Shown here one piece after another: positions 38,706 through 54,212 of a DNA stretch of 64,000 nt. Position numbers and translations under genes: made by a program. The stretch is from Alphaproteobacteria bacterium (GTDB lineage: Bacteria; Pseudomonadota; Alphaproteobacteria; GCA-2731375). Under the pieces are notes generated by a model, which saw nothing but the letters and a program-made list of their open reading frames with translations, had not been told where the DNA came from and did not search any database. Where the stretch lies: contig CBDDPY010000002.1 of NCBI GenBank assembly GCA_965232515.1, forward strand, positions 2,496,001 through 2,560,000, written 5' to 3'. How positions within the stretch are numbered: position 1 is the first letter of the stretch; every line of letters begins with the position of its first letter.

Positions 38706-38740
38706 CAAGCTGCTGAGAATGCCGTGATATCGATGCAAGT

Positions 38741-38845
38741 ATGCTTCGAGACGACGCTTCGCGTCTCCTCAGCATCAGGATAACGTGTTGAAACAGAGCG
38801 AATCCTCATCCTGAGGAAGCCCCGATAGGGGCTGTCTCGAAGGAT
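38741..38845. repeat. REP-like repeat family B, copy 2
   Basis: ATGCTTCGAGACG...CTCCTCAGCATCAG and CTCATCCTGAGGA...TCTCGAAGGAT. Confidence 0.85.
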
Positions 38846-38864
38846 GGTCAGCCGCGCTATCGGA

Positions 38865-39461: not shown

Positions 39462-39717
39462 GGCCCTCGCGGCGCACGGTATTGACGCGGGCATGCCCGG
39501 CCGCCCGAAGCGGTGCTGGGACATTGAAAATCGGTCAAGGCGTTCCTCGAAGTACTTGGTTGTCATCACGACAATCCCCCACCCGAACCGTCACAATTGC
39601 CGATGCCTGCAAGCTAGACGATGCTTGCGCCGCGGTCTTTGGATCGGTGTCTCAAGTTCGTGGTATGGCAGTCTCATCTTCCGGGAAATCTGCGTGGCGA
39701 TGCGAGCTAGCAACGAG

Positions 39718-40809
39718 TCAGGTCGATGACTGACGGTCCGATGCCGTTCCAAGTTGATCCAGCCACCACAGCTGAGGCAGCGCCGCCCGCCCATAGGCCC
39801 CGGCCTTCTGGCGCCCGCACCGCGCCGACGCGACGGCCTCCATCGCATCGATCGGCGAAATGCCGAACCGCTCGCGGAAGCTGCGGCTGAAGTGGCTGGC
39901 ATCGAAGAAGCCGAGACGTTCGGCGACGCGGCTGATGCGGCCGCGCTGTGGCGGGCCCGCGGAAAGCAGCGTAAAGGCGCGGTCCAATCGCCGGTCCCAG
40001 AGATAGCGCGCAACGCCGCCATGGTCGGCGAAACAGCGATAGATCGTCGCCCGCGACGCGTTGAACGTCCGGAACAACTCACCGGTCTCGAAATAGGGAT
40101 TCTCGAGATTCTCGTCGATGTAGCGCCGCATGGCCTGAGCCAGCGAGGCATTCCACCCCGCCGTGGTATCGTCCGGCGGCTGTGCGCCATCGGTGTCCGA
40201 TCCGCCCAGCAGAAATGCCCGGATCAATCCCAACAGACCGTTGGCCAGTGCCTCGGCCTCGCCGACCTTGGCGTTCGGCAGGGCATCGATCAGACCGTTC
40301 AAGGCCGCGACCAGGACGCGGCCCGTCGACGTATCGGTTGAATCCGTGATCGTGTCCCCGTGCCGGCGCCGATCGAAACCGATCGCCTCGCGGGGAATGA
40401 TGACGGTGGTGTGCCGGACCGCTGAGTTGACGACCCGAAACGGCAACGACATGTCGGCCAGATGCAGATTGCCTGGCCCCAGGCAGATCAGGTCGTCGCC
40501 GACAATGCCCTTCGCGAAACCGCTTTGGTAGTGCCACAGCACGACGAACTCGGCGGACAGGCCGGCAAGGTGTTCGGCGCGGCGCTCGGATATGCGGGCG
40601 CTGGCCTGGGTTTCCATCACCGCGATCTGGCCAAGCTGCCAGGAACGGATCCGGGCAGCGACGTTTTCGCGCTCTTGCGGCGCGACCTTCATGTCGATGA
40701 TGTCCCGCGCTGCTGTATGCCAGGCCTCGAACCGGTCTTCCGGCCCGAAGGCGGCGAGATCGAAACACCGCACCGGCAGGCGGTCGTCGGCGACAGTGTT
40801 CTCAGGCAT
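39718..40809 (-). CDS. AraC family regulator (FeaR-like sensing domain)
   Basis: DRFEAW, SRATIYR and GFFDASHFSRSFRERFGISP motifs. Confidence 0.88.
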   Translation of the reverse strand: MPENTVADDRLPVRCFDLAAFGPEDRFEAWHTAARDIIDMKVAPQERENVAARIRSWQLGQIAVMETQASARISERRAEHLAGLSAEFVVLWHYQSGFAKGIVGDDLICLGPGNLHLADMSLPFRVVNSAVRHTTVIIPREAIGFDRRRHGDTITDSTDTSTGRVLVAALNGLIDALPNAKVGEAEALANGLLGLIRAFLLGGSDTDGAQPPDDTTAGWNASLAQAMRRYIDENLENPYFETGELFRTFNASRATIYRCFADHGGVARYLWDRRLDRAFTLLSAGPPQRGRISRVAERLGFFDASHFSRSFRERFGISPIDAMEAVASARCGRQKAGAYGRAALPQLWWLDQLGTASDRQSST

Positions 40810-41237
40810 GAAACAAACGCCCCGTCGGCTCATGGGGCATCGGAACATGCCGGCTGCGGGCCGGCAGAATCTTGGCTTGGCGCATCAGTCGTTACCCGTT
40901 TCAAAGACCTGTTCAACACCCTTCAGTGTCTCTACCAAGCCCACGGGATCCGACCAACCAGCTATGATCACTGGTTTGTATTTTGAGATTTGTTGCGACA
41001 ACAAATCACGACTTAGCGCGACAATCAAATACATTATCGTTTCGCGACGAAATCTTCCTTGCATCGTGGACCGATCGAACATCAAACGACCAGAGGTCGT
41101 TGCCGACGCCGCGGCCGCCATTTATCCCCAATCTTGTAGACTTGCCAAATGAATAGCTGCTCTGCACATCAGTATACAAATCCATCCATAAGGCGTATGA
41201 TTTAAGAGCATCAATAAAACTCATAGAGAGGCTGAAG

Positions 41238-41723
41238 ATGATTAAGCCAGCTACGAGTTTTATGTTGTGTTCTTTTCTAGTTTTATTCCCCTTCGATAAG
41301 TTATCGGCGGCCGAGTACGACCTGACCGGCTCGAACTGCTATCATGGCGAATACAACGTCATAGTCAGAGGCAAGGGCGATTTCTCGCTCAGCTATGTCC
41401 TGCACGGCGCATCAACCTACGACGACGAAAGCGTTCCATTCCGTCACATGGCGACACGCTGCGTCGGCCTTTATGCGCTCAGGAACGGCGAGATCGAATC
41501 ATATGCGCACTGCGAGATGATCGACGGCGACGGCGACAAGCTCTTCGTCCTCGGAAATGCGCGCGGTCAGCAAAACAGCGGGACGTTTCCCGGCGGGACG
41601 GGCAAATTTGAAGGTGTCACGGGCACGTTCACCTCCGAACCCGTTGGGCGTTTTCCCGAGCCCGAAGAGCGTAACTTCGTTGCCTGCCGCCGGCATCACC
41701 ACACGTTCACGCTGCCCGATTGA
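41238..41723 (+). CDS. Secreted hypothetical protein (paralogue 1)
   Basis: Signal peptide, GAGAGG RBS, DGDGDKLF and GGTGKF motifs, four mature Cys. Confidence 0.75.
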   Translation: MIKPATSFMLCSFLVLFPFDKLSAAEYDLTGSNCYHGEYNVIVRGKGDFSLSYVLHGASTYDDESVPFRHMATRCVGLYALRNGEIESYAHCEMIDGDGDKLFVLGNARGQQNSGTFPGGTGKFEGVTGTFTSEPVGRFPEPEERNFVACRRHHHTFTLPD

Positions 41724-41780
41724 GGTCCGGTTCGATTTACGTAACCGGGAACGCAACAACACATCTCGAGGAGAACGATC

Positions 41781-42260
41781 ATGCTGAACAGGTATGTCAT
41801 GTCCGCCCTCGTGGCGTGTACGGGTTTGACCTTTGGCGCATCAGGCGCCGTTGCTGGTGATGTGAGTTGGCGAAGTTGCTGGGCCGGCACGAGCCAGACC
41901 GTCGTGCGCGGCGAAGGCGACCTCTCTTTCAGCACGGTGTTTTTCGGAACCACGGTGACCGATGATCCGGCGGATAAGCTGCACATGTCGTCCTTCAAAT
42001 GTGTGTCGGCGGGCGACATCCACGGCGGGAAGGCGGTCAGTACCGGCTATTGCCAGTCGGTGGACGCCGACGGCGACAAGTTCTTTTCGACCTACGAAGT
42101 GGTCGACGGCGCCGGTCCCCTGACGTTTACCGGCGGTACGGGCAAGTTCGACAAGGGCTCGGGCGTCGTTCAGATAAAGACGATTGGGCAGTTCCCGGGC
42201 ATTGAGTCGGGCAAGTTCCAGGGCTGCAACAACGGAAAGGGGTCCTACACCCTCCGCTAG
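41781..42260 (+). CDS. Secreted hypothetical protein (paralogue 2)
   Basis: Signal peptide, GAGGAG RBS, DADGDKFF and GGTGKF motifs, same four Cys. Confidence 0.78.
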   Translation: MLNRYVMSALVACTGLTFGASGAVAGDVSWRSCWAGTSQTVVRGEGDLSFSTVFFGTTVTDDPADKLHMSSFKCVSAGDIHGGKAVSTGYCQSVDADGDKFFSTYEVVDGAGPLTFTGGTGKFDKGSGVVQIKTIGQFPGIESGKFQGCNNGKGSYTLR

Positions 42261-42284
42261 CTGCCGGCCAACGGATCCGCCGCC

Positions 42285-43010
42285 TCAGATCTGCCGGTCG
42301 CGGATGGCGATAATGGCGGCGTGGTGCTTGTTGCGGGCGCCGAGCTTTCGCACCGCCTTGCCCAGGTGATAATTCACCGTCGAGGCGGCGACGCAGATGA
42401 TCTCGGCGATCTCGTCGGTGGTCTTGCCCTCGGCGGTCCAGCGCAGGCATTCGCGCTCGCGCGCCGACAGCGCCGGCATGGCGGTCGTCTCGTCGCCGCG
42501 CAGAAAGCCGATCATCCGGTCGTGCACCTGCACCGCGGTCAGCTGTAGTGCGTTGCGTCGCACCGCGACGGCATCCACTAGGTCCCGGCTGCGGGTGCCG
42601 ACCACCGAGAACACGCCGATATCGCCGTCCGGCCCCGAGACCGGCACGGAATAGCCGTTGACGATGCGGAACTCGCGCGCCTCGTAGAAGATCTGCCGCT
42701 GTGACTTGCGGAACGGCCGGAGGAAGCCATCGCTGCCCCAGGTGAACGGCAGGCGCGATCGCGCGCCCAGATCGGCGACGGGGTCGTAGAGCTTGTAGGA
42801 CCGGCCGAGATAGCGGCTGCGCCATTCCTCGGGATAGTTCGTGACCAGCGTGGAATCGGTGTTGCCGCGCGACGAACGCGGCATGCGCAGAACAAGGTAG
42901 GAGTAGTACGGCAGCCCCAGATCGCCGACATAGCGCTCCAAGACCCGGCCGACCTCGTCCGGCGAGCCGCAGGTCTCAAACGGATTATGATCGATCGCCG
43001 GCAATGACAT
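42285..43010 (-). CDS. LuxR-family quorum-sensing receptor (autoinducer-binding domain plus HTH), no adjacent luxI
   Basis: TNYPEEWRSRY, DPV, PFTW, NGYSVP and LSARERECLRWTAEGKT motifs; start at MSLPAIDH. Confidence 0.92.
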   Translation of the reverse strand: MSLPAIDHNPFETCGSPDEVGRVLERYVGDLGLPYYSYLVLRMPRSSRGNTDSTLVTNYPEEWRSRYLGRSYKLYDPVADLGARSRLPFTWGSDGFLRPFRKSQRQIFYEAREFRIVNGYSVPVSGPDGDIGVFSVVGTRSRDLVDAVAVRRNALQLTAVQVHDRMIGFLRGDETTAMPALSARERECLRWTAEGKTTDEIAEIICVAASTVNYHLGKAVRKLGARNKHHAAIIAIRDRQI

Positions 43011-43239
43011 TTGTCTTGCTGCTTTGTGGCCACCCCGCCGTGCCGCCGAACGGTAACATCCGGATTGGCCCGGCAACAAGACAGCGACGACCGGTAATTC
43101 GAAGCAGGAATGCGCCATTTCAAGCCGTTTTCGGCCGAAATCGCGTGCTTTTTGCAAACTTTGCCAGTGTACGGCCGGCTTTGGCGGTGCTTTTCTGAAG
43201 GTTCGACCGATGACAAGGCTTCTGACAGGGAGAACAGAC

Positions 43240-44493
43240 ATGTCGTCACTCAGAAATCGGGGTCGCCGCTGGGCCGCCACCGTCGGTGTCGCGGGCGGGA
43301 TCGCCGTGGCCGCCTGGTCGGGCGCGCTGGCCGACACCGTCAAGATCGGCGTGCTGGCGCCGCTGACCGGTCCGTCGGCGTCGGACGGCGAGGAATTCGT
43401 GCGCGGGGTCGAATGGGCCGTCGAGGAGGCGAACGCCAAGGGCGGCGTTGCCGGCCATACCTTCGAGGTCGTGGTCGCCGACGTGAAGGACCATTCCGCC
43501 GCCAACGTCAGCAGCGCCGCCGAACGCCTGCTCGGCACCGATGGCGTGCACGTGATCCTGACGGGCTACGCCAGCCTGTCGATGTTCGAGGTCGATCTCA
43601 TGGCCGAGGCCGGCATGCCCTATCTCGCCGCCGGGCCGTCGCCGTCCTTCGCCGCCATCGTCTCGCAGGACCCGGACTATTACTGGTGCTGCTGGTCCTA
43701 CACCGCGTCCTTCAAGGGCTACGAGACCGACGTGCTGCCGGCGATCGAGAGCCTGGGCGCGCAGGGCAAGATCGCCATCCGCGACAAAAAAGTCGCGATG
43801 ATCTCGTCCGACAACCCCTATTCCAAGACCATCTCGGAGGGCATGAAGAAGGTCTTCGACGCCGCCGGCTGGCAGATCACCGTCGACGAGATGGTGCCGT
43901 TCGGCGAGGTCGGCGACTGGCGCGCGATCCTCGCGAAAGTCCGCCAAGACCCGCCGGATCTGGTCATCAACACCGACTATCTGCCCGGCAATTCGGCGCT
44001 GTTCCTGAAGCAGTTCCTGGAGAAGCCGACCGACAGCGTCGTCTTCCTGCAATACGCGCCGTCGGTGCCCGAGTTCGTCGAGCTGACCGGGGCGCAGTCG
44101 ACGGGCGTGCTCTACAACCTGATCGGCGGGCCGCTGGATTCGCCGGGCTGGCCGCGCGGCCAGAAGCTGATGCGCGCTTTCGAAGAACGCTATGGCGTGA
44201 CATCGGGCGCCTACGGCGTCGGCCTCTACGAGATGACCAACATGTATTTCATGGCGCTGGAAAAAGTCGGCGACCCGACCGACCACGAGGCCATCGGCCG
44301 CACCATCGGCACGCTGAAGACCGACTCCGTCGCCGGGCCCATCGAGTTCGATCCGGCGACGCACGTGGCGCTGCAAAGCGACGACCACGTGCCGGTGTCG
44401 TTCTGGCAGATCTGGGACGGCGATCGCGTGCTGATCAAGCCCGACAAGTACGCCAACGGCGATTTCCGGCTGCCGCCCTGGATCGCGCAATAG
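43240..44493 (+). CDS. Liv/HAAT-family ABC substrate-binding protein
   Basis: Signal peptide, KIGVLAPLTGPSASDG and NAKGGVAG motifs; GGGAGA RBS. Confidence 0.9.
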   Translation: MSSLRNRGRRWAATVGVAGGIAVAAWSGALADTVKIGVLAPLTGPSASDGEEFVRGVEWAVEEANAKGGVAGHTFEVVVADVKDHSAANVSSAAERLLGTDGVHVILTGYASLSMFEVDLMAEAGMPYLAAGPSPSFAAIVSQDPDYYWCCWSYTASFKGYETDVLPAIESLGAQGKIAIRDKKVAMISSDNPYSKTISEGMKKVFDAAGWQITVDEMVPFGEVGDWRAILAKVRQDPPDLVINTDYLPGNSALFLKQFLEKPTDSVVFLQYAPSVPEFVELTGAQSTGVLYNLIGGPLDSPGWPRGQKLMRAFEERYGVTSGAYGVGLYEMTNMYFMALEKVGDPTDHEAIGRTIGTLKTDSVAGPIEFDPATHVALQSDDHVPVSFWQIWDGDRVLIKPDKYANGDFRLPPWIAQ

Positions 44494-44526
44494 CCGGCGT
44501 CACGCGCTGGTGTAACCTGCTTGGCC

Positions 44527-45273
44527 ATGGCTGAGGGGGGCAGAGAAACGCTGTTCCGCGCCGAGGGACTGGTCAAATCCTTCGGCGCGCTGACCGCGGT
44601 CGACGACGTCGGCTTCGCGGTCGCGGCCGGCGAGATCCTCGGCATCGCCGGCCCGAACGGCAGCGGCAAGAGCACGCTGTTCAATATCATCACCAACGTG
44701 CCGTTCCGGGCCGACCGCGGCCGCGTCGTCTTCGAGGGCCGGGAGATCCAATCGCTGCCCGGCCACGAGATCTGCCGCCGCGGCCTCGCCCGCACCTTCC
44801 AGCGCGAGAGCGTGTTCGCTAGCCTGCGCGCCATCGACAACGTGCTGACCGCCATCGAGCATAGCGGCGGGCGCGGCACCCAGGCCGAGAACGAGGCCCG
44901 GGCCGAGGCCGCGCTCGACCGCGTCGGCTATCCCGGCACCATGCACAACACGTTGGCGGGCGGCCTGCCGGTGTTCTTCCGCAAGCAGGTGATGATCGCC
45001 AGCGCCATGGCGCTCGGGCCCCGCCTCCTGCTGCTGGACGAGCCCGCCTCCAGCCTGACCCAGGCCGAGGTCGACCGCATGCGCGACCTGATTCTCGGCC
45101 TGCGCGATGCCGGCGTGACGATCCTGTTGATCGAGCATGTTCTGCCGCTGCTGACCGCTGTGTCGGACCGCCTGATCGTCCTCGACCAGGGCCGCCTGAT
45201 CGCCGAGGGCGCGCCGCGCGACGTCGTGCGCGACCCGCGCGTGGTCGAGGCCTATCTCGGGGTCGCCCCATGA
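44527..45273 (+). CDS. LivG-like ABC ATPase
   Basis: GPNGSGKST, ARTFQ, LLLDEP, IEH and VVEAYLG motifs; degenerate signature motif. Confidence 0.9.
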   Translation: MAEGGRETLFRAEGLVKSFGALTAVDDVGFAVAAGEILGIAGPNGSGKSTLFNIITNVPFRADRGRVVFEGREIQSLPGHEICRRGLARTFQRESVFASLRAIDNVLTAIEHSGGRGTQAENEARAEAALDRVGYPGTMHNTLAGGLPVFFRKQVMIASAMALGPRLLLLDEPASSLTQAEVDRMRDLILGLRDAGVTILLIEHVLPLLTAVSDRLIVLDQGRLIAEGAPRDVVRDPRVVEAYLGVAP

Positions 45274-46064
45274 CCGGCGCCGCGCCGTTGCTGGAGTTGC
45301 GCAAGCTGTCGGGCGGCTACGAGCCGATCCAGATCTTCCGCGACGTCGACCTGCGCGTCGATCCCGACAGCAGCATCGGCCTGTTCGGCCCCAACGGCCA
45401 CGGCAAGACCACGTTGCTGCGCACCGTCAGCGGCATCATCGACCCCTGGTCCGGCGATATCTTCTTCGACGGCCAGCGCCTGAACCGCGAAGGCGAGCGC
45501 GGCAGCCGCCGCTCGCGCAACTTCAACTACGACGCCGTGCGCCGCCGCCGCATGGATCCGAAAACGGTCGCGCGGGCCGGCCTGATCCAGGTGCCGCAGG
45601 GCAACCTGCTGTTCCCGGAGATGACCGTGGCCGAGACCCTGTCGGTGGCGCCGGCCGCCGCCGCCGGCCGCGCCGACGCCAAGGAATCGCTCGCCCGCGT
45701 GCACGACCTGTTCCCGCGCCTGCACGAGCGCCGCGACCAGAAGATCCGCTTTCTGTCCGGCGGCGAGCGGCAGATGGTCGCGGTCGGCGTCGGCCTGATG
45801 GCGGCGCCCAAGCTATTGATCCTGGACGAGCCGACACTGGGCCTGTCGCCGAAGCTGCGCCTGGAGCTGTGCGACGCGATCCGCGCTATCCAGGCCTCTG
45901 GCGTGCCGCTGATCGTCGTCGACCAGGACGTCGAGTTCCTGGAGCAGATCATCGATACGCTCTACCTGTTCGACCACGGCAGCATCTCCGGCCGCATCGA
46001 CAAATCGGACATGCCGTCGCACGCCGAGATCATGGCGATGCTGTTCGGCGAGCCGGCCGCATGA
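45270..46064 (+). CDS. LivF-like ABC ATPase
   Basis: GPNGHGKTT, LFPRL.ER, LSGGERQM and LDEPTLGLSP motifs. Confidence 0.9.
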   Translation: MTGAAPLLELRKLSGGYEPIQIFRDVDLRVDPDSSIGLFGPNGHGKTTLLRTVSGIIDPWSGDIFFDGQRLNREGERGSRRSRNFNYDAVRRRRMDPKTVARAGLIQVPQGNLLFPEMTVAETLSVAPAAAAGRADAKESLARVHDLFPRLHERRDQKIRFLSGGERQMVAVGVGLMAAPKLLILDEPTLGLSPKLRLELCDAIRAIQASGVPLIVVDQDVEFLEQIIDTLYLFDHGSISGRIDKSDMPSHAEIMAMLFGEPAA

Positions 46065-46945
46065 CCGCCGAAACGTTCATGTTCGTCACGGCCGGCGGCC
46101 TGGTCCTGGGCGCGCTCTACGCCCTGATGGCGACCGGCCTTGCCGTCGTCTGGACCACGTTGGGCATCTTCAACTTCGCCCACGGCGCCTTCATCGCCGC
46201 CGGCGCCTATATCGCCTGGCAGGTCGGCGGCGCGCTCGGCGACGCGGTCGTCGCCGGCGCCCTCGCCGCCGTCGCCTTCATGTTCGTCATCGGCGTTCTG
46301 TTCCACGTGCTGCTGGTGCGGCCGTTCGAGCGGCAGCCCAACCTGGTGCTGATTTCCGTCATCACCACGCTCGCCGGCGCCGCCGTCCTTGAAAACCTGC
46401 TGAACGTGATCTGGGGCGCGCGCTCGAAGCAGATCCCGCCGCTCGCGGCCGGCGACCTCACGGCCTTCGGCGTCACCGTCTCGCACAACGAGGCCGTGCT
46501 GCTCGTCGTCGTGCTGGTGATCCTGGCGCTGCTCGGCTACTTCCTGCGCCGCACACCCCAGGGTCGGGCCATGCGCGCCGTCGCCCAGAACCGCGAGGCG
46601 GCCCAGCTCATGGGCCTCGACGTGCCGCGCCTCTACGCGCTCGCCTTCGGCCTGTCGGCGGCGCTCGCCGGGCTCGCCGGCGTGTTCATCGGCTCGATCC
46701 GCTTCATGACGCCCACGATGGGATCGGACCCGCTGCTGAAGGCCCTGATCGTCGTCATCTTCGGCGGCATCGCCCGCTTCACCAGCCCGATCTACGCCGC
46801 CTTCATCGTCGGCATGGTCGAGGCCTTCTCGACCTACTATGTCGGCCTCTACTGGACCCCCGCGGTGCTGTTCGCGCTGATGATCGCCGTGCTGATCGCC
46901 AAGCCCGAAGGCCTGTTCGGCAAATACCAGCGGTCGGTGCAGTGA
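46061..46945 (+). CDS. LivH-like ABC permease
   Basis: GALYALMATGL, FNFAHG and GRAMRAVAQN motifs; ATGA overlap. Confidence 0.9.
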   Translation: MTAETFMFVTAGGLVLGALYALMATGLAVVWTTLGIFNFAHGAFIAAGAYIAWQVGGALGDAVVAGALAAVAFMFVIGVLFHVLLVRPFERQPNLVLISVITTLAGAAVLENLLNVIWGARSKQIPPLAAGDLTAFGVTVSHNEAVLLVVVLVILALLGYFLRRTPQGRAMRAVAQNREAAQLMGLDVPRLYALAFGLSAALAGLAGVFIGSIRFMTPTMGSDPLLKALIVVIFGGIARFTSPIYAAFIVGMVEAFSTYYVGLYWTPAVLFALMIAVLIAKPEGLFGKYQRSVQ

Positions 46946-46955
46946 GACAAAAACG

Positions 46956-48809
46956 GTGAGATACGACCCGCCCTTCCACCGCGGCAACGGCCTGATCCCG
47001 GTGCTGATCGCGCTCGCCGCGCTCGCGGTCTTCCCGCTCATCGTCACCGACAGCTATTCGCGGCATCTCCTGATCCTGGCCTTCGTCTTCGCCGTCGTCG
47101 CGTCCAACTGGGATCTCAGCCTCGGCTTCGGTGGCCTGTTCAACTTCGCGCATGTGGCGCTGTTCGCCATCGGCGTCTACACCTACGGCATTGCCGCCAA
47201 GACGCTCGGCGTCTCGCCCTGGCTGGCGATCCCGCTGGGTGGGCTCGTCGCCCTGGCCGTCGCGGCCACCATCGCGTTGCCCGTGCTCCGGCTCGACGGG
47301 ATCTATGTGATCCTGGTGACGCTCGCCTTCTCGCAGCTGATCTATCAGGTCGTGATCAGCCAGTCCGACATCACCGGCGGCACCTCCGGCATGGTCACCC
47401 TGCCGGCGCTCAAGCTCGGCGACTACCGCTTCGTGCGCGACGGCAAGATCGGCTACTACTATATCGGCCTGGCGCTGCTCGTCGCCTCGACGGCGTTCCT
47501 GTATACCTTCACGCGCTCGCGCTTCGGCCGCGCTATCGTCGCGCTGCGCGACAACAAGTACTACGCGATGTCGCGCGGCATCTCCGAGGCCCGCACGCGG
47601 TTGCTGACCCTGATGGCGAGTGCGCTGTTCACCGGCATCGCCGGCGGCTTCTACGGGTCCTACGTACGCGTCGCCTCGCCCGACGCCTTCGGCCTCGGGT
47701 TTCTCACCCTGCTGCTCAGCATCCTGCTGCTGGGCGGCGCCGGCACGATCTGGGGCCCGGTCATCGCCGCCTTCGTCATCACGCTGCTGTCGGAGGCCAT
47801 CGCCGACCTCGGCGCCTGGCGCAACATCGTCATCGCCGCGCTGATCGTCGTGATCATGGTGTTCTATCCCGGCGGCATCTGGGCCGCCCTGCAGGAGCTG
47901 CGCGAATTCGCCGACGTCAAGCGCACGACGTTCCGCGCCTGGCGTCGCCGGCGGCGCGAAAAGCGCGCGCGCGAGGCCCGCCTCGGCGCCCGCGAGCGCA
48001 TGCTCAAAACGGCGCATGGCGACATCGCCATGGCCGACAGCGGCGGCGACGGACCGCCCATCCTGCTGATCCACGGCAACTCTTCCTGCAAGGAGGTCTT
48101 CGCGCATCAGTTCGCCGCCTTCCGCGACGACCACCGGCTGATCGCCTTCGACCTGCCGGGCCACGGCGTCTCCACGAACGGCGACCCCGAGACCGACTAC
48201 ACCGTCAGCGCCTATGCCGAGATCGCCGAGGCCGTGCTCGACGCGGCGCAAGCGGAAAACCCTGTTGTGCTCGGCTGGTCCCTCGGCGGCTATGTCGCGC
48301 TCGAGCTCGCCGCCCGCGGCCGACGCCCGATCCGCGGCCTCGCCATCACCGGCACGTCACCGCTGAACATCGTGCCCGACGATTTCGGCGCCGGCTACGA
48401 TGCCCACTCGCATGTCGTGCTGGCCGGCAAGCAGTTCTTCTCGGCGCACGAACGCCGCACCTTCGCCGCCGCCACCGCCGGGCCGTACAACGCCGACAGC
48501 GCCTTCCTGCACGACACCGTCGGCCGCACCGACGGCCGCGCCCGCTACTACATGATCGGCAAGCTGCCGGTCATCGACTGGCCGCGCCAGATGCGCATGC
48601 TGCGCGACGGCACCCTGCCGTTCGCCATCCTGAACGGCGCCCGGGACCCGTTCCTGAACCACGCCTATATCGCCGGCCTGACCTATGGCGATATCTGGAC
48701 CGGCCGGCCGCACGACATTCCCGACACCGGCCACGCGCCGTTCTACACCAAGCCGCAGGAATTCAACGCCGCCTTCCGCCGCTTCATGCAAGAGGCCTGC
48801 GGCCTCTAG
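46956..48809 (+). CDS. LivM-like permease fused to an AidH-like alpha/beta hydrolase
   Basis: First ~320 aa form the permease (SRFGRAIVALRDN, GGAGTIWGP, PGGI). From nt 48000 the hydrolase follows (IHGNSS, DLPGHG, GWSLGG, RTDGRAR, GHAPF). No stop codon in between. Confidence 0.9.
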   Translation: MRYDPPFHRGNGLIPVLIALAALAVFPLIVTDSYSRHLLILAFVFAVVASNWDLSLGFGGLFNFAHVALFAIGVYTYGIAAKTLGVSPWLAIPLGGLVALAVAATIALPVLRLDGIYVILVTLAFSQLIYQVVISQSDITGGTSGMVTLPALKLGDYRFVRDGKIGYYYIGLALLVASTAFLYTFTRSRFGRAIVALRDNKYYAMSRGISEARTRLLTLMASALFTGIAGGFYGSYVRVASPDAFGLGFLTLLLSILLLGGAGTIWGPVIAAFVITLLSEAIADLGAWRNIVIAALIVVIMVFYPGGIWAALQELREFADVKRTTFRAWRRRRREKRAREARLGARERMLKTAHGDIAMADSGGDGPPILLIHGNSSCKEVFAHQFAAFRDDHRLIAFDLPGHGVSTNGDPETDYTVSAYAEIAEAVLDAAQAENPVVLGWSLGGYVALELAARGRRPIRGLAITGTSPLNIVPDDFGAGYDAHSHVVLAGKQFFSAHERRTFAAATAGPYNADSAFLHDTVGRTDGRARYYMIGKLPVIDWPRQMRMLRDGTLPFAILNGARDPFLNHAYIAGLTYGDIWTGRPHDIPDTGHAPFYTKPQEFNAAFRRFMQEACGL

Positions 48810-48841
48810 CGTCGCCGCGCCGGCTCCGCCACACTTGGGCC

Positions 48842-49375
48842 ATGACCACGATCGACACCGACCACCTGCTGCTGCGCCCGTTCGAACCGGAAGACGTCGA
48901 CGCCTACGCCGCGATCCGCGCCAAGCCCGAGGTCGTTCGCTACCTGCCCGGCGGACCCGAGAGCGCCGCCAACGCCCGGGCCAAAGCCGAACAGCTCATC
49001 CCCACCTTCGTCACCGCCTGGCGCGACCCGGGCTACGGCCCCTGGGCCGTGATCGAGCGTGCAACCGATCGACTGATCGGCCATGCCGGCCTGCGCCTGG
49101 TGCCCGAGCTCGGCGGCGAGACCGAGATCCTCTACATGCTCGACAGCGCCTGCTGGGGCCGCGGCTACGCCACAGAGGCGGCCGAGGCCGCCTGCCGCTA
49201 CGGCTTCGAGACCCTCGGTCTCGACCGCCTGATCGCGCTTGCCCTGCCCGAGAACGCCGGCTCGATCCGCGTCATGCAAAAGCTCGGCATGACCGCCGAC
49301 GGCCCGTTCGAGGCCTTCGGCATTTCCGGCATTCGTTATGTCCTTCGCCGGGATCAATGGGAGCAGCGGGCTTAG
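48842..49375 (+). CDS. GNAT (RimJ/RimL-like) acetyltransferase
   Basis: WGRGYATEAA and NAGSIRVMQKLGM motifs. Confidence 0.9.
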   Translation: MTTIDTDHLLLRPFEPEDVDAYAAIRAKPEVVRYLPGGPESAANARAKAEQLIPTFVTAWRDPGYGPWAVIERATDRLIGHAGLRLVPELGGETEILYMLDSACWGRGYATEAAEAACRYGFETLGLDRLIALALPENAGSIRVMQKLGMTADGPFEAFGISGIRYVLRRDQWEQRA

Positions 49376-49643
49376 CCCGCCTTTCTCACCACCCTCATGG
49401 TCTGCGTCGGGCACAGGCGTCTGCTCCGCCAGGAGCGGGCCGAAAAGCGTAGCGGGGACTACGGTTGAGGGCCGCGACGCCGCGGGCGGGCGCCTGCGCG
49501 CGACCCTTCGGGCGGCGCCGTGCTGCCGACAGGGGGCGTCGCGCTGCTTGCCCGATGCCCCACATCGCGCCGCGCAGCGCTCCTGCCCTGTCGGCAGCAC
49601 GACGCCGCGCAGACCATGAGGGTGGTGAGAAAGGCGGGCATAG
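49373..49643. mobile_element. MITE-like non-autonomous element, copy 1
   Basis: Terminal inverted repeats of ~32 bp (GCCCGCCTTTCTCACCACCCTCATGGTCTGCG); near-identical inverted copy at 55272-55543. Confidence 0.85.
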
Positions 49644-49728
49644 CCCAACGGCCTGTTCGCGCCCCGCCAAAAACGCTTCCTTAAGCCGGACGGCCTAGGC
49701 TCGCACTGGGGGCAAAGCGAGGCCAGCC

Positions 49729-51009
49729 GTGCAAAAACTCCTCGTGGTCGAGGACTCGACCGTCTTCCGCGCCATCGTCGAACAACAGATCGGCCAGGAG
49801 CTCGGCATCGAGCTGGTGCTGGCCGAGACCATGGTCCAGGGCCTCGCCGCCGTCGAGGGCCGGGCCGACGAATTCTTCCTCGCGCTTCTGGACCTGACCC
49901 TGCCCGACGCGCCGAATGGCGAGATCGTCGACGCCATGCTTGGCCGTGGCATTCCGGTTGTCGTCTTCACCTCGCGTTACGACGAAGCCTTGCGCGAGAC
50001 ATTGCTGGCCAAGAACGTCATCGACTATGTGCCGAAGGACAGTCCGGCCAGTCTGAAATACCTCGTTTCCATGGTCCGCCGCATCCAGCGCAACCGCGAG
50101 ACCACGGCGCTGGTCGTCGACGACTCGGCCACGGCGCGACAGCTCGCCCGGCACCTGCTCGAGCTCTATCAGTTCGACGTGCGCGAGGCCGACAGCGGCC
50201 AGGCGGCGCTCGACGCGCTCGAGGCCGAGCCCGGCATCCGCCTCGTCATCACCGACTACAACATGCCGGGGATGGACGGCTTCGAGCTGATCCAGCACCT
50301 GCGCAGGCGCTTCGACCGGGACGAGCTGGCGATCATCGGCGTCTCGGCGGGCGGCGACGCGCCGTTGTCGGCCAAGTTCATCAAGTACGGCGCCAACGAC
50401 TTCCTCAACAAACCGTACCTGCGCGAGGAGTTCTTTTGTCGCATCTCGCAGAACATGGAGATGCTGGACAACATCCGCGCGTTGCGCGAGGCCGCCGGTA
50501 AGGACTTCCTGACCGGCCTGCCCAACCGCCGGTCGTTCTTCGAGATCGCCGGCGCGCTGCACGCCGCGGCCCGCCGCGACGGCGCCCGCGCCTTCGCCGC
50601 GATGATCGATGTCGATCATTTCAAGCGGGTCAACGACACCCACGGCCACGACGCCGGCGACGCCGTGCTGCGCGAAATCGGCCGTCTCCTGCCGTCTCTG
50701 TTGGTGCGCGAGTCCGACGTCGTCGCCCGGCTCGGCGGCGAGGAGTTCGCGGTCTTCGCCTACGACGTGACGCCGGAGACCGCGGCCTCGTTTTTCGAAT
50801 CGGTCCGGCAGGCGGTCGCCGACGCCGTCATCGCCACGCCGGCGGGCGCCCTCAACGTCACCGTCAGCATCGGCGTCAGCTGCCGGATCGGCGACAGCCT
50901 GCAGCACATGCTGAACGCCGCCGACGCCTGCCTCTACGACGCCAAGGCCGCCGGCCGCGACCGCGTCGTCTCCGACGCCGAACCCGCCGACCTCATGGCG
51001 GTGATCTGA
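49729..51009 (+). CDS. REC-REC-GGDEF diguanylate cyclase
   Basis: Two receiver domains (LLDLTLPD, ITDYNMP), DFLTGLPNRR, RESD I-site and GGEEF. Confidence 0.93.
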   Translation: MQKLLVVEDSTVFRAIVEQQIGQELGIELVLAETMVQGLAAVEGRADEFFLALLDLTLPDAPNGEIVDAMLGRGIPVVVFTSRYDEALRETLLAKNVIDYVPKDSPASLKYLVSMVRRIQRNRETTALVVDDSATARQLARHLLELYQFDVREADSGQAALDALEAEPGIRLVITDYNMPGMDGFELIQHLRRRFDRDELAIIGVSAGGDAPLSAKFIKYGANDFLNKPYLREEFFCRISQNMEMLDNIRALREAAGKDFLTGLPNRRSFFEIAGALHAAARRDGARAFAAMIDVDHFKRVNDTHGHDAGDAVLREIGRLLPSLLVRESDVVARLGGEEFAVFAYDVTPETAASFFESVRQAVADAVIATPAGALNVTVSIGVSCRIGDSLQHMLNAADACLYDAKAAGRDRVVSDAEPADLMAVI

Positions 51010-51041
51010 CCCGCGGCCGACGTCAGAACATCGCCCGGCGC

Positions 51042-51147
51042 CATGCTTCGAGACGCGCCCTGTCGGGCGCTCCTCAGCATGAGGTAAAGCACTGATATCA
51101 AATACAAACCTCATCCTGAGGAGGGCCGGAGGTCCGTCTCGAAGGAT
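51042..51147. repeat. REP-like repeat family B, copy 3
   Basis: CATGCTTCGAGACG...CTCCTCAGCATGAG and CTCATCCTGAGGAG...CGTCTCGAAGGAT. Confidence 0.85.
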
Positions 51148-51162
51148 TGCTATCGATTGCCG

Positions 51163-52287
51163 TCAGTTCGGATTAGTCGGCCCACCCAAAAACCAATCCA
51201 AAATCCGTGCGTTCTCCTCGCGCGGATAGGTGTGCGACAGGTCGGCGATCTCGCGGTAGGTGACGTCGGCGCCGGCGGTGCTCAAGGCGCTCCGCGCGCT
51301 CCGCGCGATCTCGATGTTGAACATCCAGTCCAGCGCGCCGTGGGTCAGATAGATCGGCAGCCCGGCGATGCGGGGTGCGTCCATCATCTCCATCAGCATC
51401 GGGTGGAAACTGGCCGCGATCGGCGCCAGATGCGTGAACGGCGAATTGGCCCGCAGCCCGCTCACGTAAGCGAACGTGCCGCCATCGCTCATGCCGGTCA
51501 GCAGCAGCCTCTTGGCGTCGACGTTCCAGCGCTCGCCCACATAATCCAGCATGCCGGCGATGTTCTCGCTGTCGACATCCGGCCCCATCAGCGACCAGGT
51601 GCCGCCGCGCGCCGTCGGGCTCAGCACGATCGCGCCGCGGCCGCGCGCCTCGCGCAGCCAGGTCCACAAGAACCCCCGTCCGTGTCCGCTGCCGCCATGC
51701 AGGGCCACGATCAGCGGCCAGGCCGTGTCGGCGTCGTAGTACTCCGGCACATAGAGTGAAAAGCCGCCGCGACTGTCATAGGCGTTGTCGGCATGCATCG
51801 GCCCGACATCAGTCGCCGTCGCCTGACCCTCCCGCAGACGCGCCAGCAACGCTTCGTCGTCGCGCACGCTGTCCTCGAGAAAGAACTGGCTTACCGGCCT
51901 GAGCGCCCGGCTCAGCGGATAGAGCGCCTCCTGCGCCCGTGGCGCGCGGCGCAATGCCCGGTAGGCGGCGATCACCGCGTCGTCGCCGTCCGTGGCCTCT
52001 CGCAGCTCGTCGAAGGCGCGGCAGGTCTGGTCGCTCGCCGCCTCGACCCGCTCGACCGCGCCGCCAAGCGCTGCCGGCCAATCCATGGCCCGGAATGCCG
52101 CCAACCCGTCGCGCAGATCCGCGTCGACATCGCCGACCTCCGCCACCAGCGCGGCCAGGCGCGGCGGATGCAGCTGCCGCGCGACAAAGGCCAGCGCTTC
52201 GAGCGAGGCCAGCAATGGCCGCAGCACGCCGGTCAGCGCCGTGACCTGCGCCTCGCTGTCCCCAACAGGGGTGTCGTCTTGGGTCAT
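51163..52287 (-). CDS. Phospholipase/carboxylesterase-type alpha/beta hydrolase with helical N-terminal domain
   Basis: ALHGGSG, GMSDGG, HGALDW and LSHTY motifs. Confidence 0.82.
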   Translation of the reverse strand: MTQDDTPVGDSEAQVTALTGVLRPLLASLEALAFVARQLHPPRLAALVAEVGDVDADLRDGLAAFRAMDWPAALGGAVERVEAASDQTCRAFDELREATDGDDAVIAAYRALRRAPRAQEALYPLSRALRPVSQFFLEDSVRDDEALLARLREGQATATDVGPMHADNAYDSRGGFSLYVPEYYDADTAWPLIVALHGGSGHGRGFLWTWLREARGRGAIVLSPTARGGTWSLMGPDVDSENIAGMLDYVGERWNVDAKRLLLTGMSDGGTFAYVSGLRANSPFTHLAPIAASFHPMLMEMMDAPRIAGLPIYLTHGALDWMFNIEIARSARSALSTAGADVTYREIADLSHTYPREENARILDWFLGGPTNPN

Positions 52288-52586
52288 GCGTCCCCGCCTC
52301 ACGCCTCCACCGTCGAGTATGTCGCCGCCGCCATGCTGCTGTCACGTCGTTATGGGACCGGCCGTCGCGGCCGACCTCATTTTCATGGCGGCTGACGCGC
52401 TCTCATACATGGCCCGGGCGCGGCCGCCTCGCCTGTGAGCCAGCCCACAAAGATCCAGCAAAAACAAGAGCATATTTCCCACGCAGCGAGATTCGCACCA
52501 GGGCAAAGCCGGTGCGACCCGCCGTGAAAGACCGAAAAGTTGGGGACCCAACGACGCGCCGTTCGCGGCGCCCGGAGGAAGCGATC

Positions 52587-53339
52587 ATGTTCAATCTGGA
52601 TCCCCTGACCCTGCTCGACCGATTGGAGCAGGCCGACGACATCGACAATGCCAGCGCCGTGTTCAGCGACACGCTCGGCGAGAGCGGCCTTTGCGACGGA
52701 TTCTACATGCCGCGCGTGCCGGTCGAATGCCCCCGCGCCCTGGCCGAGCCCGACCTCGATATGCTGACCTTCGGCGCGAGGGTCGGCGGCTCCTATTTCC
52801 CCAGCCTCACGGAGCGCATCCGCGCTCTGCCGTTCGACCCGATCACGGCATACCTGAAGAAAAACGCGCGACCCTGGCTCAAGAACGCCGAGACCGATTG
52901 CGACAAGTCGGCGCTGCTCTACCTGGCCGACATCACCCTCGACCACGGCATCTCGGCCGGCGCGCTGTTTCCTATCCACGGGCCCGGCGGCAGCTACGCG
53001 ATCTATGGCATTTACACGGCGCGAGAGGCCCCGGAGGCCTACCGGACCTTGCGCGACCATATGGCCGCGCTCAACCTCGCCGTGCTCTATTTCCACGGCG
53101 CCTGTCACGCCAGGTTCGCGGCGCCGGCGCCTTGCCGTACGGTCGAGCTCGCGCCGCGCGAACGGGAATGCCTGCATTGGGTCGCGGCCGGTGAGAGCAG
53201 CAAACAGATCGCCTATCGACTCGATCTCTCGACCCACACGGTGAACGAGGTGATCGGCAACGCCATGCGGCGGCTGAAGGCCGCGTCGCGGGCCGAAGCC
53301 GTTGCCAAAGCGATCCTGGCCGGCCTGATCGCCCCTTGA
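52587..53339 (+). CDS. LuxR-family regulator with divergent autoinducer-binding domain
   Basis: DPI, GALFPIHGPGG and LAPRERECLHWVAAGES motifs; GGAGG RBS. Confidence 0.85.
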   Translation: MFNLDPLTLLDRLEQADDIDNASAVFSDTLGESGLCDGFYMPRVPVECPRALAEPDLDMLTFGARVGGSYFPSLTERIRALPFDPITAYLKKNARPWLKNAETDCDKSALLYLADITLDHGISAGALFPIHGPGGSYAIYGIYTAREAPEAYRTLRDHMAALNLAVLYFHGACHARFAAPAPCRTVELAPRERECLHWVAAGESSKQIAYRLDLSTHTVNEVIGNAMRRLKAASRAEAVAKAILAGLIAP

Positions 53340-53441
53340 CCGGGCCCAATTGGACAGGATGCCACCCCTATTTTTGGGGGATCGACCGGAACGTCGGCGC
53401 CCGCCATCTCTTGCCCCAGCTATCTGGGAAAGGATTTGGCT

Positions 53442-54212
53442 ATGTACGAACGATTATCGACGCGTCCGGCCGTGGCATGGAGCCTGGCGATCGTCCTGAC
53501 CACGTTTGGCGGTCTGCCGGCCGTCGCCGTGCCGATCGCCAACATCATGCACGACGCCGCCGGCCGGTCGCAGGCGGCACTGAACTCGGGCGAAACGGAT
53601 TCCGATTCGGACATCACCACGTCGCCCGACGATCTGATCATCTCGGGCGGCAGCCTCGCGCTGACCCAGCCCGGTGTGCAGGGCGCGCTTGCCAGCGGCA
53701 GTGCGCTGTCGCGCATCTCGCTGTTCGATGACACGGCCTCGATCGCCGTGGGTGTCGGCGCCAGCTACAGCCCCAGCTTCTTCGGCGGCGACAATCCGGG
53801 TGGCGACATCGCCGCCGAACTGGAGTCTGTCATCGAGTTCACGGTCGCCGCGCAGGAGGTGTTTTTCGACCTGTTCGCGGTCGAACGCATCAACGGCACG
53901 AATTCGGGCAACTTCACGTCCGTGCTGGAGAATGTCACCGACGGTACCACCCTGTTCTCTCTCGCAACCCCGGTCGGCCGCATCTTCAGTCTCGAGTTCA
54001 CGCTGACCGATGCCGTCGGCGACCTGCTGCGCCTGACCACCATGGGCGAGGCGCTGGCGTCGAGCGAACCAGGCGGATCGTCGGCCACCTTCGACACCGA
54101 CCTGTTCCTGACCATCAGGGCGGTTCCCGAGCCGGGCACGCTCGCCCTGTTCGGTCTGGGTCTGGCCGGTCTCGGCCTTGTCACCCGGCGGCGCGCGCGC
54201 CAGACCGCGTGA
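53442..54212 (+). CDS. PEP-CTERM sorting-domain surface protein
   Basis: Signal peptide, Ser/Thr/Gly/Asp-rich body, C-terminal VPEPGTLALFGLGLAGLGLVTRRRAR. Confidence 0.92.
   Translation: MYERLSTRPAVAWSLAIVLTTFGGLPAVAVPIANIMHDAAGRSQAALNSGETDSDSDITTSPDDLIISGGSLALTQPGVQGALASGSALSRISLFDDTASIAVGVGASYSPSFFGGDNPGGDIAAELESVIEFTVAAQEVFFDLFAVERINGTNSGNFTSVLENVTDGTTLFSLATPVGRIFSLEFTLTDAVGDLLRLTTMGEALASSEPGGSSATFDTDLFLTIRAVPEPGTLALFGLGLAGLGLVTRRRARQTA

Follow-up and report, generated by a model that had tools for sequence, protein, structure and literature searches.

Gene Organization at the Locus

Within the window (by which we mean the whole 64,000-nucleotide stretch of DNA analysed here), a single open frame on the + strand at 46956..48809, with a GTG start and 617 codons devoid of internal stops according to the ORF listing and the translation, encodes a protein composed of three parts: a LivM-type ABC permease, a basic linker and an alpha/beta hydrolase of about 270 aa. 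This gene is the last of a compact operon that encodes a binding protein, two ATPases, LivH and the fusion itself, which we denote LivM::AidH.

The operon opens with a periplasmic substrate-binding protein of the Peripla_BP_6 type (43240..44493, + strand; Pfam PF13458, E 3.5e-44), endowed with a signal peptide whose predicted cleavage site is ALA|DTVKIG. Its ORF opens at 43210, and the likely start is the ATG at 43240, which is preceded by GGGAGA. There follow a LivG-like ABC ATPase (44521..45273, +; Pfam ABC_tran, E 1.1e-22, and BCA_ABC_TP_C, E 2.6e-10), a LivF-like ABC ATPase whose start overlaps the LivG stop by 4 nt (45270..46064, +; ABC_tran, E 4.3e-25) and a LivH-like permease whose ATG overlaps the LivF stop in the sequence ATGA (46061..46945, +; BPD_transp_2, E 7e-38). 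The operon has the composition of LivHMGF and the other importers of the HAAT family, combining a LivJ-like binding protein with a pair of ATPases and a pair of BPD_transp_2 permeases. No + strand terminator was found inside the operon, and a consensus promoter scan found no sigma-70-like site. Divergently from the operon, on the − strand, lies a gene for a LuxR-type regulator of 241 aa (42285..43010).

The best solved relative of the binding protein was 3h5l (E 2.3e-50), whereas LivJ and LivK were matched only with E values of 7e-6 to 2e-5, so that the protein is remote from the Leu/Ile/Val binders of the LivHMGF systems. Known ligands of the binding-protein family are amino acids, urea, amides and aromatic acids, which counts against an AHL as the cargo.

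The Fusion Is a Genuine, Conserved Two-Domain Protein

The initial annotation had described an uninterrupted 617-codon frame joining a LivM-like domain, an Arg-rich linker and a hydrolase, and the ORF, its translation and the Pfam matches all agree with this description. It had also remarked that the internal ATG has no strong ribosome-binding site; indeed, the DNA 5′ of this ATG, at 47997, contains no AGGAGG-like site.

When independent genomes were checked for the same arrangement, the fusion proved not to be unique to this assembly: it occurs at 42 independent genome loci in several alphaproteobacterial orders (Rhizobiales/Hyphomicrobiales, Rhodobacterales, Rhodospirillales-like bacteria and Sneathiellales); culturable carriers include strains of Pseudodonghicola, Aestuariivita, Pelagibius and Enhydrobacter. 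The gene order is identical among these taxa, in all fused loci whose sequence extends sufficiently far upstream for it to be seen. Both domains were present in 118 of the 120 best proteins listed by the homologue search (339-1080 aa), and the length and basic character of the linker were conserved in 39 of 39 sequences. A contig from a second sample spans the junction (47852-48250) with zero differences and zero gaps, and no sequencing sample examined showed insertions or deletions. Among the RNA data, the polyA run X21 yielded no reads, and the RNA-library contigs of sample X4 come from a relative with about 94-97% similarity and leave positions 47968-47995 unbridged. Finally, GC3 is 0.93 throughout the fusion frame. 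We therefore give virtually no credence to the idea of an artefact or a decaying gene, in which a lost stop codon or a frameshift would have merged two genes in the assembly: the recurrence at many loci and in nearly all the best listed proteins, the shared linker length, the identical junction in a second sample and the even GC3 all argue against it. The fusion is a genuine conserved two-domain protein, neither a product of chance nor an assembly error.

The remaining transporter genes travel with it. Together with the fusion, the binding protein, the two ATPases and the two permeases make up a unit conserved at 58-79% identity (67-79% for the binding protein among fused loci), and the six genes, namely luxR and the five-gene operon, form a module found in scattered Alphaproteobacteria. 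None of the flanking genes is conserved outside this module, the largest cluster of flanking genes being generic ABC ATPases at 9 loci. The GNAT gene located 3′ of the fusion in the window has no counterpart at any other locus, and the short ORF at 41781-42260, located behind luxR, bears no relation to the ORFs in corresponding positions at two other loci (L043 and L045).

Two further kinds of candidate fusion were considered and rejected. Long open frames upstream of the fusion (up to 979 aa, at many loci) had the appearance of LivH-LivM-hydrolase triple fusions; because LivH is read in a different frame, they are chance open frames in GC-rich DNA. A 587-aa protein (P0215), considered as a second fusion type, turned out to contain two hydrolase domains and no permease.

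In the plasmid collection that we searched, no fused copy was found, and one record matched the permease part only. In public databases the fusion proteins bear generic names only, such as "alpha/beta fold hydrolase".

Membrane Domain, Linker and Predicted Topology

The LivM-type membrane domain comprises residues 1-307 (46956..47876, +), with some ten TM helices as judged by the AlphaFold helices and hydropathy. Residues 38-301 match BPD_transp_2 (E 7.9e-41). The NCBIfam LivM model NF008450 was also matched (E 1.1e-34), the score of 120.5 bits being far below the cut-off of 366. Judged from its sequence, the domain is LivM-like in fold and family and is not an equivalog of the branched-chain amino-acid permease; it also differs from the LivM of HAAT importers in carrying a 310-aa C-terminal extension.

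A sequence search for solved relatives of the membrane domain found none. When its model was submitted to Foldseek, the matches were weak (best E 6.9e-3) and included the type II importer permeases 2nq2, 7kyp and BtuC, a hint of a ten-helix topology with both ends inside. The topology prediction likewise gave ten TM helices, with a basic, cytoplasmic loop at residues 187-215, then four TM helices and then the basic linker helix.

This linker (residues 308-343; 47877..47984, +) was modelled by AF2 as one long helix bridging the final TM helix and the first hydrolase strand. The helical segments are 308-334 and 336-343, and the pLDDT values for the blocks covering residues 311-350 are 89-97. Its Arg-rich stretch, FRAWRRRRREKRAREAR, occupies residues 326-342, and residues 300-372 contain 16 K+R. 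The predicted topology is in keeping with the earlier suggestion that the basic linker places the enzyme in the cytoplasm, where substrate channelling or metabolic trapping might, in that view, become possible. In the model, the hydrolase would be joined at the cytoplasmic C-terminus of the permease through a rigid basic helix.

The Hydrolase Domain Belongs to the AidH Family

The hydrolase domain extends over residues 346-617 and the stop codon (47991..48809, +), with Pfam matches to Abhydrolase_1/6 at residues 367-606 (E about 1e-22). In a phmmer search against the PDB, the top hit was AidH (4g5x, E 2.6e-55) and the next best had an E value of 4e-16. Foldseek placed AidH entries at ranks 1-8 (E 2.6e-22, TM 0.89-0.90, rmsd 1.9-2.0 Å over about 277 columns, 37-38% identity), the next match being 4x00 at 3.5e-12. 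By sequence and by fold, the domain is a member of the AidH family, as initially proposed, with a complete Ser-His-Asp triad, and AidH is its only close solved relative.

AidH, the metal-independent AHL lactonase of Ochrobactrum sp. T63 (PDB 4g5x; PMC3532132), is soluble and unattached, with a length of about 271-279 aa, whereas the domain in the window is the C-terminus of a membrane permease. The two have in common the alpha/beta-hydrolase core with a helical cap, the GWSLGG nucleophile elbow, the HGN oxyanion motif, the RTDGRAR cap motif and the GHAPF His loop. In fact, all the motifs that the initial annotation had listed are present and align with 4g5x (besides those just named, TAHGDIA, IHGNSS, DLPGHG.ST, ITGT.P, LAG, NG..DPF and IWTG), and the phmmer alignment also shows the Asp that it had noted in place of the AidH Glu.

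In AidH, the nucleophile Ser and the acid are marked by the PDB mutant entries S102G (4g8b) and E219G (4g8c), the latter mutant retaining some activity (PMC3532132). Residues S102, H248 and E219 correspond in the window to Ser442 (codon 48279-48281, +), His593 (48732-48734, +) and Asp564 (48645-48647, +), all of which are invariant in the fused homologues (114/114). The same holds for Asn375 and Leu443, the counterparts of the oxyanion residues N33 and L103, whose backbones in AidH contact the lactone carbonyl (PMC3532132). F221 corresponds to F566, kept in 113 of 114 fused proteins, and the equivalents of the AidH tunnel residues remain hydrophobic.

Other positions differ. H106 and F138 of AidH are both replaced by Tyr in the window domain. 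Tyr160, which in AidH forms hydrogen bonds to the ring oxygen of the lactone and to the hydroxyl of the product, and whose mutation strongly lowers activity (PMC3532132), is replaced by Phe503; across the family, 60 of 114 proteins have Tyr at this position and the other 54 have Phe. Two near-invariant tyrosines nearby, Tyr446 and Tyr481, might conceivably take over the role of Tyr160. In addition, the cap domain carries an invariant WPRQ motif that is absent from AidH, so the pocket may differ from that of AidH.

Uncharacterised standalone relatives are 39-44% identical to the hydrolase domain, and AidH is no closer to it than many of these. The cluster-member names of the nearest standalone relatives are uninformative. 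In a tree built without AidH itself, the fused hydrolases all fall on one side of a branch with an SH-aLRT value of 100.

A Divergent LuxR-Type Regulator and a Candidate Operator

The divergent regulator consists of an autoinducer-binding domain (Autoind_bind, PF03472, E 4e-32) and a GerE helix-turn-helix (PF00196, E 2.1e-16), both values being for a longer ORF. Its phmmer matches in the PDB included RhlR (1.3e-23) and TraR (1.2e-22), as well as QscR, LasR and SdiA. A LuxR homologue is found directly upstream and divergent in 33 of the 36 testable fused loci, and it is absent from all 3 unfused relatives. In the three fused loci without LuxR, M20 amidohydrolases occupy its place.

What we take to be the signature of an AHL pocket comprises, in TraR numbering, Y53, W57, Y61, D70, P71, W85 and G113. 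All seven residues align with TraR (1h0m) and are invariant in the 33 module regulators aligned, so that the regulator is predicted, from its pocket residues, to be a canonical AHL-type LuxR protein that binds and responds to AHLs. In the plant-signal LuxR class W57 and Y61 are substituted, as they are in the PipR-type pocket, whereas the module regulators keep both.

The regulator qualifies as a LuxR solo, as there is no AHL synthase gene beside it. In tblastn searches with 20 LuxI fragments from the same genomes, no LuxI was detected within 10 kb of any locus or, in the window, at 38001-52000. Elsewhere, LuxI occurs in 16 of 20 module genomes; the sole PF00765 match in the genome studied here scores 30 bits and lies about 2.3 Mb away.

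In the intergenic region between luxR and the binding-protein gene (43011-43239), 72 nt before the likely ATG at 43240, we identified an 18-bp box, TTTGCAAACTTTGCCAGT (43151..43168), as a candidate LuxR operator. Of 33 promoters, 28-30 contain a box, and its position does not vary. At this position, an ACTA-N10-TAGT palindrome is present in 15 loci, and a TTTGCAAGATTTGCCAGT-like site in 13 of the 33 regions with ≤3 mismatches, the window included (and in 2 more with 5). Allowing ≤2 mismatches, the box is unique in the 7.39-Mb genome, as compared to 5 matches for a reversed control pattern. The LuxR protein may bind this box and would thereby control the operon.

Possible Function of the Module

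We propose that the module may import AHL-type signals under LuxR control and open their lactone ring upon entry into the cytoplasm, a reading that we consider about evenly balanced between right and wrong. According to this scheme, the LuxR protein would bind an AHL-type signal and act at the 18-bp box, switching on the operon. In the periplasm, the binding protein would capture the signal (probably an AHL that diffuses poorly, with a long chain or an unusual structure), and the transporter would carry it inward, where the hydrolase, tethered at the permease exit, would open the lactone ring to yield an N-acyl-homoserine. As an outcome, the signal would be removed from the surroundings, inactivated and made usable as food.

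An AHL as the transported cargo and a lactonase reaction of the hydrolase would both be presumed in this scheme. The scheme is favoured by the invariant active site, in a domain whose only close solved relative is AidH, by the recurrence of the fusion in many genomes, by the predicted topology, and by the co-occurrence of LuxR, its AHL-pocket residues, the conserved box and the absence of an adjacent LuxI. On the other hand, it is generally held that short AHLs need no help to cross membranes, so for them an importer would be unnecessary. For long-chain AHLs, FadL-facilitated uptake across the outer membrane has been reported in rhizobia (PMC9938287).

Catabolic genes near the fused loci fit the breakdown of an N-acyl-homoserine, though scattered across loci: in raw counts, the M20 amidohydrolases stand in place of LuxR at the 3 loci lacking it and acyl-CoA ligases adjoin 4 loci, while an amidase, an S58 peptidase and an enoyl-CoA hydratase are found at 1 locus each. 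A threonine synthase lies directly downstream in 3 loci, all from Rhodobacteraceae, and these cases may reflect shared ancestry.

The scheme has a conceptual analogue in the Lsr system for autoinducer-2, which comprises the ABC importer LsrACDB (whose permeases also belong to Pfam BPD_transp_2), LsrK, LsrR and LsrFG. There too, in conjunction with a signal-responsive regulator, an ABC importer internalises a quorum-sensing signal that is chemically inactivated inside. The differences are that the Lsr signal is AI-2 rather than an AHL, that the regulator belongs to another family, that inactivation occurs by phosphorylation and cleavage instead of lactone hydrolysis, and that the Lsr enzymes are separate proteins, whereas the enzyme in the window is fused to the permease. 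By analogy, the module would be the AHL (AI-1) counterpart of the Lsr uptake-and-destruction system.

Alternative Explanations

It is possible, if doubtful, that a different ester, lactone or amide is imported, with the fused hydrolase carrying out the first step of its catabolism and the LuxR protein providing quorum-sensing control or acting as a non-AHL sensor; the cargo could be an amino-acid ester, homoserine lactone, another lactone or an N-acylated amino compound. The closest unfused transporters (binding protein 52-65% identical) adjoin Polysacc_deac_1, isochorismatase, Amidohydro_2 and M20 genes, suggesting that this transporter clade is generally coupled to cytoplasmic amide or ester hydrolysis. 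Such neighbours suit an amide or ester nutrient as well as an AHL and count against the import and opening of AHLs, as do the modest identity to AidH (just 37-38%), the variable Tyr160 equivalent, which is Phe503 in the window, and the distinct invariant WPRQ motif of the cap. Conversely, all 33 module LuxR proteins retain W57, Y61 and the five other residues of the AHL pocket, the hydrolase has a single characterised relative, which is an AHL lactonase, and LuxR accompanies the fusion while being missing in the unfused relatives. A LuxR solo with an ABC-imported, non-AHL ligand has a precedent in PipR, which responds to HEHEAA and is encoded beside a proline iminopeptidase, itself an alpha/beta hydrolase; as reported in PMC10134790, PipR-type solos resemble our module in that the luxR gene lies beside an ABC importer, needed for ligand entry, and an alpha/beta-fold hydrolase, but the transporter is of the peptide type (HAAT type in the module), the hydrolase is a separate protein of another family and the ligand is an ethanolamine derivative.

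We deem it unlikely that the hydrolase quenches AHLs while the cargo is something unrelated, such as amino acids, in which case the fusion would serve to anchor the lactonase at the inner membrane face and to tie its dosage to quorum-regulated uptake. AHLs are generally known to enter cells without a carrier, and the transporter family is annotated as being of the branched-chain amino-acid type, both of which fit this explanation. A precedent for such an arrangement is QsdH, with which we know of no associated LuxR gene or binding protein. In QsdH of Pseudoalteromonas byunsanensis, as reported in PMC3466314, an AHL-degrading hydrolase domain is likewise covalently part of a membrane transporter that has a different main job; there, a GDSL-type lactonase sits in an RND-type inner-membrane protein (an exporter), whereas the window has an AidH-type alpha/beta hydrolase on an ABC importer. 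Against an unrelated cargo, the whole transporter is conserved with the fusion as a unit while the flanking genes are not, and the binding protein is only distantly related to the Leu/Ile/Val binders of solved structure. Moreover, the modelled linker, rigid and conserved in length, is more in keeping with a hydrolase held in a set position with respect to the permease than with a loosely anchored one.

Implications

Searching the literature outside subscription journals and supplementary files, we found no description of a LivM::AidH fusion or of an ABC importer for AHLs, and neither was found in the accessible portion of a review on LuxR solos (PMC10134790). New here are the terminal position of the fusion in the operon, the conserved divergent AHL-type LuxR gene and the shared 18-bp promoter box. 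These features point to an undescribed system for signal uptake and inactivation in dozens of marine and soil bacteria.

In its most far-reaching form, which we advance tentatively while leaning somewhat against it, the proposal is that this may be the first dedicated inner-membrane AHL importer: in a self-contained cassette, a LuxR solo would sense the signal, an ABC transporter dependent on a binding protein would import it and a lactonase welded to the permease exit would inactivate each molecule. If the cargo is not an AHL, the module nevertheless offers a clear natural case of an enzyme fused to the exit of an ABC importer, useful for the study of transport-coupled catalysis.

Current models of AHL signaling take passage through the inner membrane to be passive and quenching enzymes to be either free and soluble or secreted. 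Both assumptions would fall if a LuxR solo did control an AHL importer that is driven by energy and equipped with its own lactonase. Inner-membrane passage of AHLs would then not always be passive, and active uptake would become directly testable with a defined six-gene cassette. If so, some marine and soil Alphaproteobacteria would actively strip their neighbours' signals from the environment, for eavesdropping, interference or food.

A permease–hydrolase fusion in independent genomes

As the initial annotation claimed, nucleotides 46956–48809 (+) form a single open frame of 617 codons. We consider its GTG start correct because the N-terminus (MRYDPPFH) is kept among homologues. Pfam models place a BPD_transp_2 permease domain at residues 38–301 (E 7.9e-41) and alpha/beta-hydrolase domains at 367–606 (E about 1e-22); the Arg-rich linker already noticed lies at 326–342, and GC3 is 0.93 along the entire frame. 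The AlphaFold model of the full-length protein has a mean pLDDT of 86.9 and a pTM of 0.78.

When the hydrolase part was searched against 5.8 billion proteins, limited to 339–1080 aa, 279 matches were obtained at E ≤ 1e-10. Among the best 120 of these, 118 carried both PF02653 and a hydrolase family and most were 614–640 aa long; sources include Albidovulum, Pelagibius, Aestuariivita, Sedimentitalea, Roseiarcus, Enhydrobacter and Rhodospirillales. The concern that the fusion might be unique to this assembly did not hold: in one-genome-per-species contigs it recurs at 42 loci (61–71% identity), with linker length and basic character kept in 39/39 extracted sequences, and contigs from a second sample span the junction (47852–48250) with no difference and no gap. 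No run compared had indels over the fusion, the contig of run X1 that covers it in full possibly being the assembly's own source. The fusion is thus real, and an artefact is excluded. P0123, truncated at its N-terminus, represents a more distant version of the fusion; the part it retains (last two TM helices, linker and hydrolase) shows 47% identity.

A tree was built from 19 fused and 130 standalone domains, the latter limited to 240–345 aa. All fused domains fall on the same side of a branch supported at SH-aLRT 100, and a single origin is therefore possible. Within the class the module is uncommon: an even sample of 401 genomes gave the fused type in 4, the organism's own included, and that genome has one copy.

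Operon and topology

The fusion is the final gene of a tightly packed operon, comprising a Peripla_BP_6 binding protein with a signal peptide (43240–44493, +), a LivG-like ATPase (44521–45273, +), a LivF-like ATPase overlapping the LivG stop by 4 nt (45270–46064, +) and a LivH-like permease (46061–46945, +) with an ATGA overlap with the LivF stop. Using tblastn with the window proteins, we found identical module gene order in all loci.

Hydropathy and both AlphaFold models give the membrane part about ten TM helices, the last four at 211–237, 247–260, 266–281 and 287–303. Ahead of these four, helices at 189–206 make up a strongly basic loop (8 K/R within residues 187–215), as expected for the ATPase-coupling region. 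After the last TM helix, a long helix (308–343, block pLDDT 89–97 in the full-length model) connects directly to the hydrolase, whose first strand is at 346. By fold, the membrane domain matched only type II importer permeases, and these weakly. The cytoplasmic placement proposed initially agrees with the positive-inside rule applied to this predicted topology, so the hydrolase is probably cytoplasmic, a placement inferred only.

Similarity to AidH

With residues 348–617 as phmmer query against all PDB sequences, the AHL lactonase AidH came first (4g5x, wild type; 4g8b, S102G; 4g8c, E219G; E 2.6e-55 to 1e-54), followed by 4x00 (E 4e-16), and every AidH motif named in the initial annotation was found in the alignment. 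AidH entries also took ranks 1–8 when the AlphaFold model was searched against the PDB (TM 0.89–0.90, rmsd 1.9–2.0 Å, 37–38% identity for the hydrolase domain), ahead of a putative aryl esterase (E 3.5e-12).

The functional residues of AidH, as described with its structure in PMC3532132, were located in the aligned sequences of 114 fused proteins. The nucleophile Ser102 (Ser442 in the fusion), the triad base His248 (His593), the triad acid Glu219 (Asp564) and the oxyanion-hole residues Asn33 (Asn375) and Leu103 (Leu443) have these counterparts in 114/114, and Phe221, surrounding the active site, is Phe566 in 113/114. Tyr160, which that paper describes as clamping the lactone ring oxygen, with activity falling strongly on mutation, is a feature missing from the window's domain (Phe503); Tyr occurs in 60 and Phe in 54 of the fused proteins. 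The tunnel-wall residues His106 and Phe138 are replaced by Tyr446 (111/114) and Tyr481 (101/114), the remaining tunnel positions keep their hydrophobic character, and a WPRQ motif in the cap is invariant in the fused family and absent from AidH. The catalytic machinery therefore appears intact, and the substrate pocket appears to be no copy of AidH's. By fold and catalytic residues we assign the domain to the AidH family, with predicted lactonase activity.

Among 1.84 billion representatives, the closest standalone relatives are 39–44% identical (190–210 bits), a range that includes AidH itself (191 bits). In another genome of the class, an AidH-like match (G178:C4:190389-191192, 43% identical) lies inside a 1070-aa open frame, which could be another fusion type or merely a long chance frame.

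A divergent LuxR gene and a candidate box

A LuxR-type regulator of 241 aa (42285–43010, −) diverges from the operon. Of the 36 fused loci with enough upstream DNA, 33 have a homologue (33–51% identity) immediately upstream; six others end too early to score. None of the three nearest unfused transporters (L050–L052) has one. In the three remaining fused loci, one from Tianweitania (L034) and two from Mesorhizobium (L035, L037), a divergent M20-family amidohydrolase takes the place of LuxR, a second M20 gene lies directly 3' of the fusion and an aminotransferase upstream.

We take Y53, W57, Y61, D70, P71, W85 and G113 of TraR to be the AHL-pocket signature. Aligned with 1h0m, the window's LuxR keeps equivalents of all seven, which are invariant across the window and 32 loci. 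By tblastn, no LuxI-like gene was found in any locus or in window positions 38001–52000. LuxI occurs elsewhere in 16 of 20 module genomes, on a separate contig where comparable save in two (~430 kb away; ~8 kb from luxR); the organism's own genome has one weak match, ~2.3 Mb from the module.

An 18-bp box recurs in the luxR/binding-protein intergenic regions, at constant spacing from the binding-protein gene. An ACTA-N10-TAGT palindrome (15/33 regions) has the core GCAGATCTGC, presumably resembling the tra box, and scores 18–26 bits vs 7.4 for the shuffled 99th percentile. The form TTTGCAAGATTTGCCAGT occurs in 13/33 at ≤3 mismatches, the window (43151–43168) included, and in two further regions at 5 mismatches; three of the 33 have no clear box. 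At ≤2 mismatches the window box is the sole occurrence in the 7.39-Mb genome (reversed control pattern, 5 matches). We infer that LuxR binds this candidate box. The right half, TGCNAGT, is the same in both forms, and the left half is either ACTAGCA or TTTGCAA; the L031 box (119–136 of the extracted promoter region) is a hybrid. The two forms may have co-varied with the helix-turn-helix of LuxR.

Neighbouring genes

No conserved genes beyond the six-gene module were found in the flanks of the loci. AMP-binding acyl-CoA ligases adjoin it in L023, L043, L045 and L047, and an amidase (L016), an S58 peptidase (L019) and an enoyl-CoA hydratase (L027) at single loci. In three Rhodobacteraceae, threonine synthase lies directly 3' of the fusion, 28–133 bp away on the same strand (L014:1865-3232, L024:12835-14220, L038:7828-9213), which could reflect a link to homoserine metabolism or mere shared synteny.

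The unfused relatives, whose binding proteins are 52–65% identical, have separate hydrolase genes downstream: Polysacc_deac_1 and Pirin in L050 and L051; two isochorismatases, Amidohydro_2 and M20 in L052 (labelled Chloroflexia). The whole transporter clade therefore seems coupled to cytoplasmic hydrolases. In L052 a histidine kinase/response regulator pair replaces LuxR.

In the window, a GNAT acetyltransferase (Acetyltransf_3, E 2.9e-38; 48842–49375, +) starts 32 nt past the fusion stop; it is probably a local addition, because no other locus has a counterpart beside the module. A signalling cluster follows (49729–53339): a response-regulator/GGDEF diguanylate cyclase (49729–51009, +), a PHB-depolymerase-like esterase (51163–52302, −) and another LuxR-type protein, whose autoinducer-binding domain is partial (52512–53339, +), after which comes a PEP-CTERM protein (53436–54212). 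RNA runs X21–X24 are polyA-selected, and the one compared gave zero reads on 46500–49000, uninformative for expression.

Possible function

The module presumably works like the Lsr system for AI-2. It also resembles PipR-type solos, which according to a LuxR-solo review (PMC10134790) depend on an ABC importer to take up their ligand; that review contains none of the words "branched", "hydrolase" and "lactonase". As a design, the fusion has a precedent in QsdH, which is described as lying within an RND protein (PMC3466314). We found no description of the module in the literature, supplementary files and subscription journals being outside the search.

The pocket's divergence from AidH leaves room for some other cargo (an ester, lactone or amide), LuxR being a quorum-sensing input only; we hold this main rival to be possible, if less likely. 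It is unlikely that the fusion is a membrane-anchored lactonase carried by an unrelated amino-acid importer.

LuxR-activated import of an AHL-type molecule, with lactone opening by the tethered hydrolase, is the best-supported reading, and we give it an even chance. LuxR with bound signal would switch the operon on, and binding protein and transporter would import the molecule; FadL-facilitated outer-membrane uptake of long-chain AHLs is documented in rhizobia (PMC9938287). The tethered hydrolase would then open the lactone ring at the cytoplasmic exit of the transporter. Downstream host enzymes may use the ring-opened product, and several neighbours, from the M20 amidohydrolases, acyl-CoA ligases and amidase to the S58 peptidase, enoyl-CoA hydratase and threonine synthase, scattered over loci as raw counts, would be compatible with the breakdown of N-acyl-homoserine.
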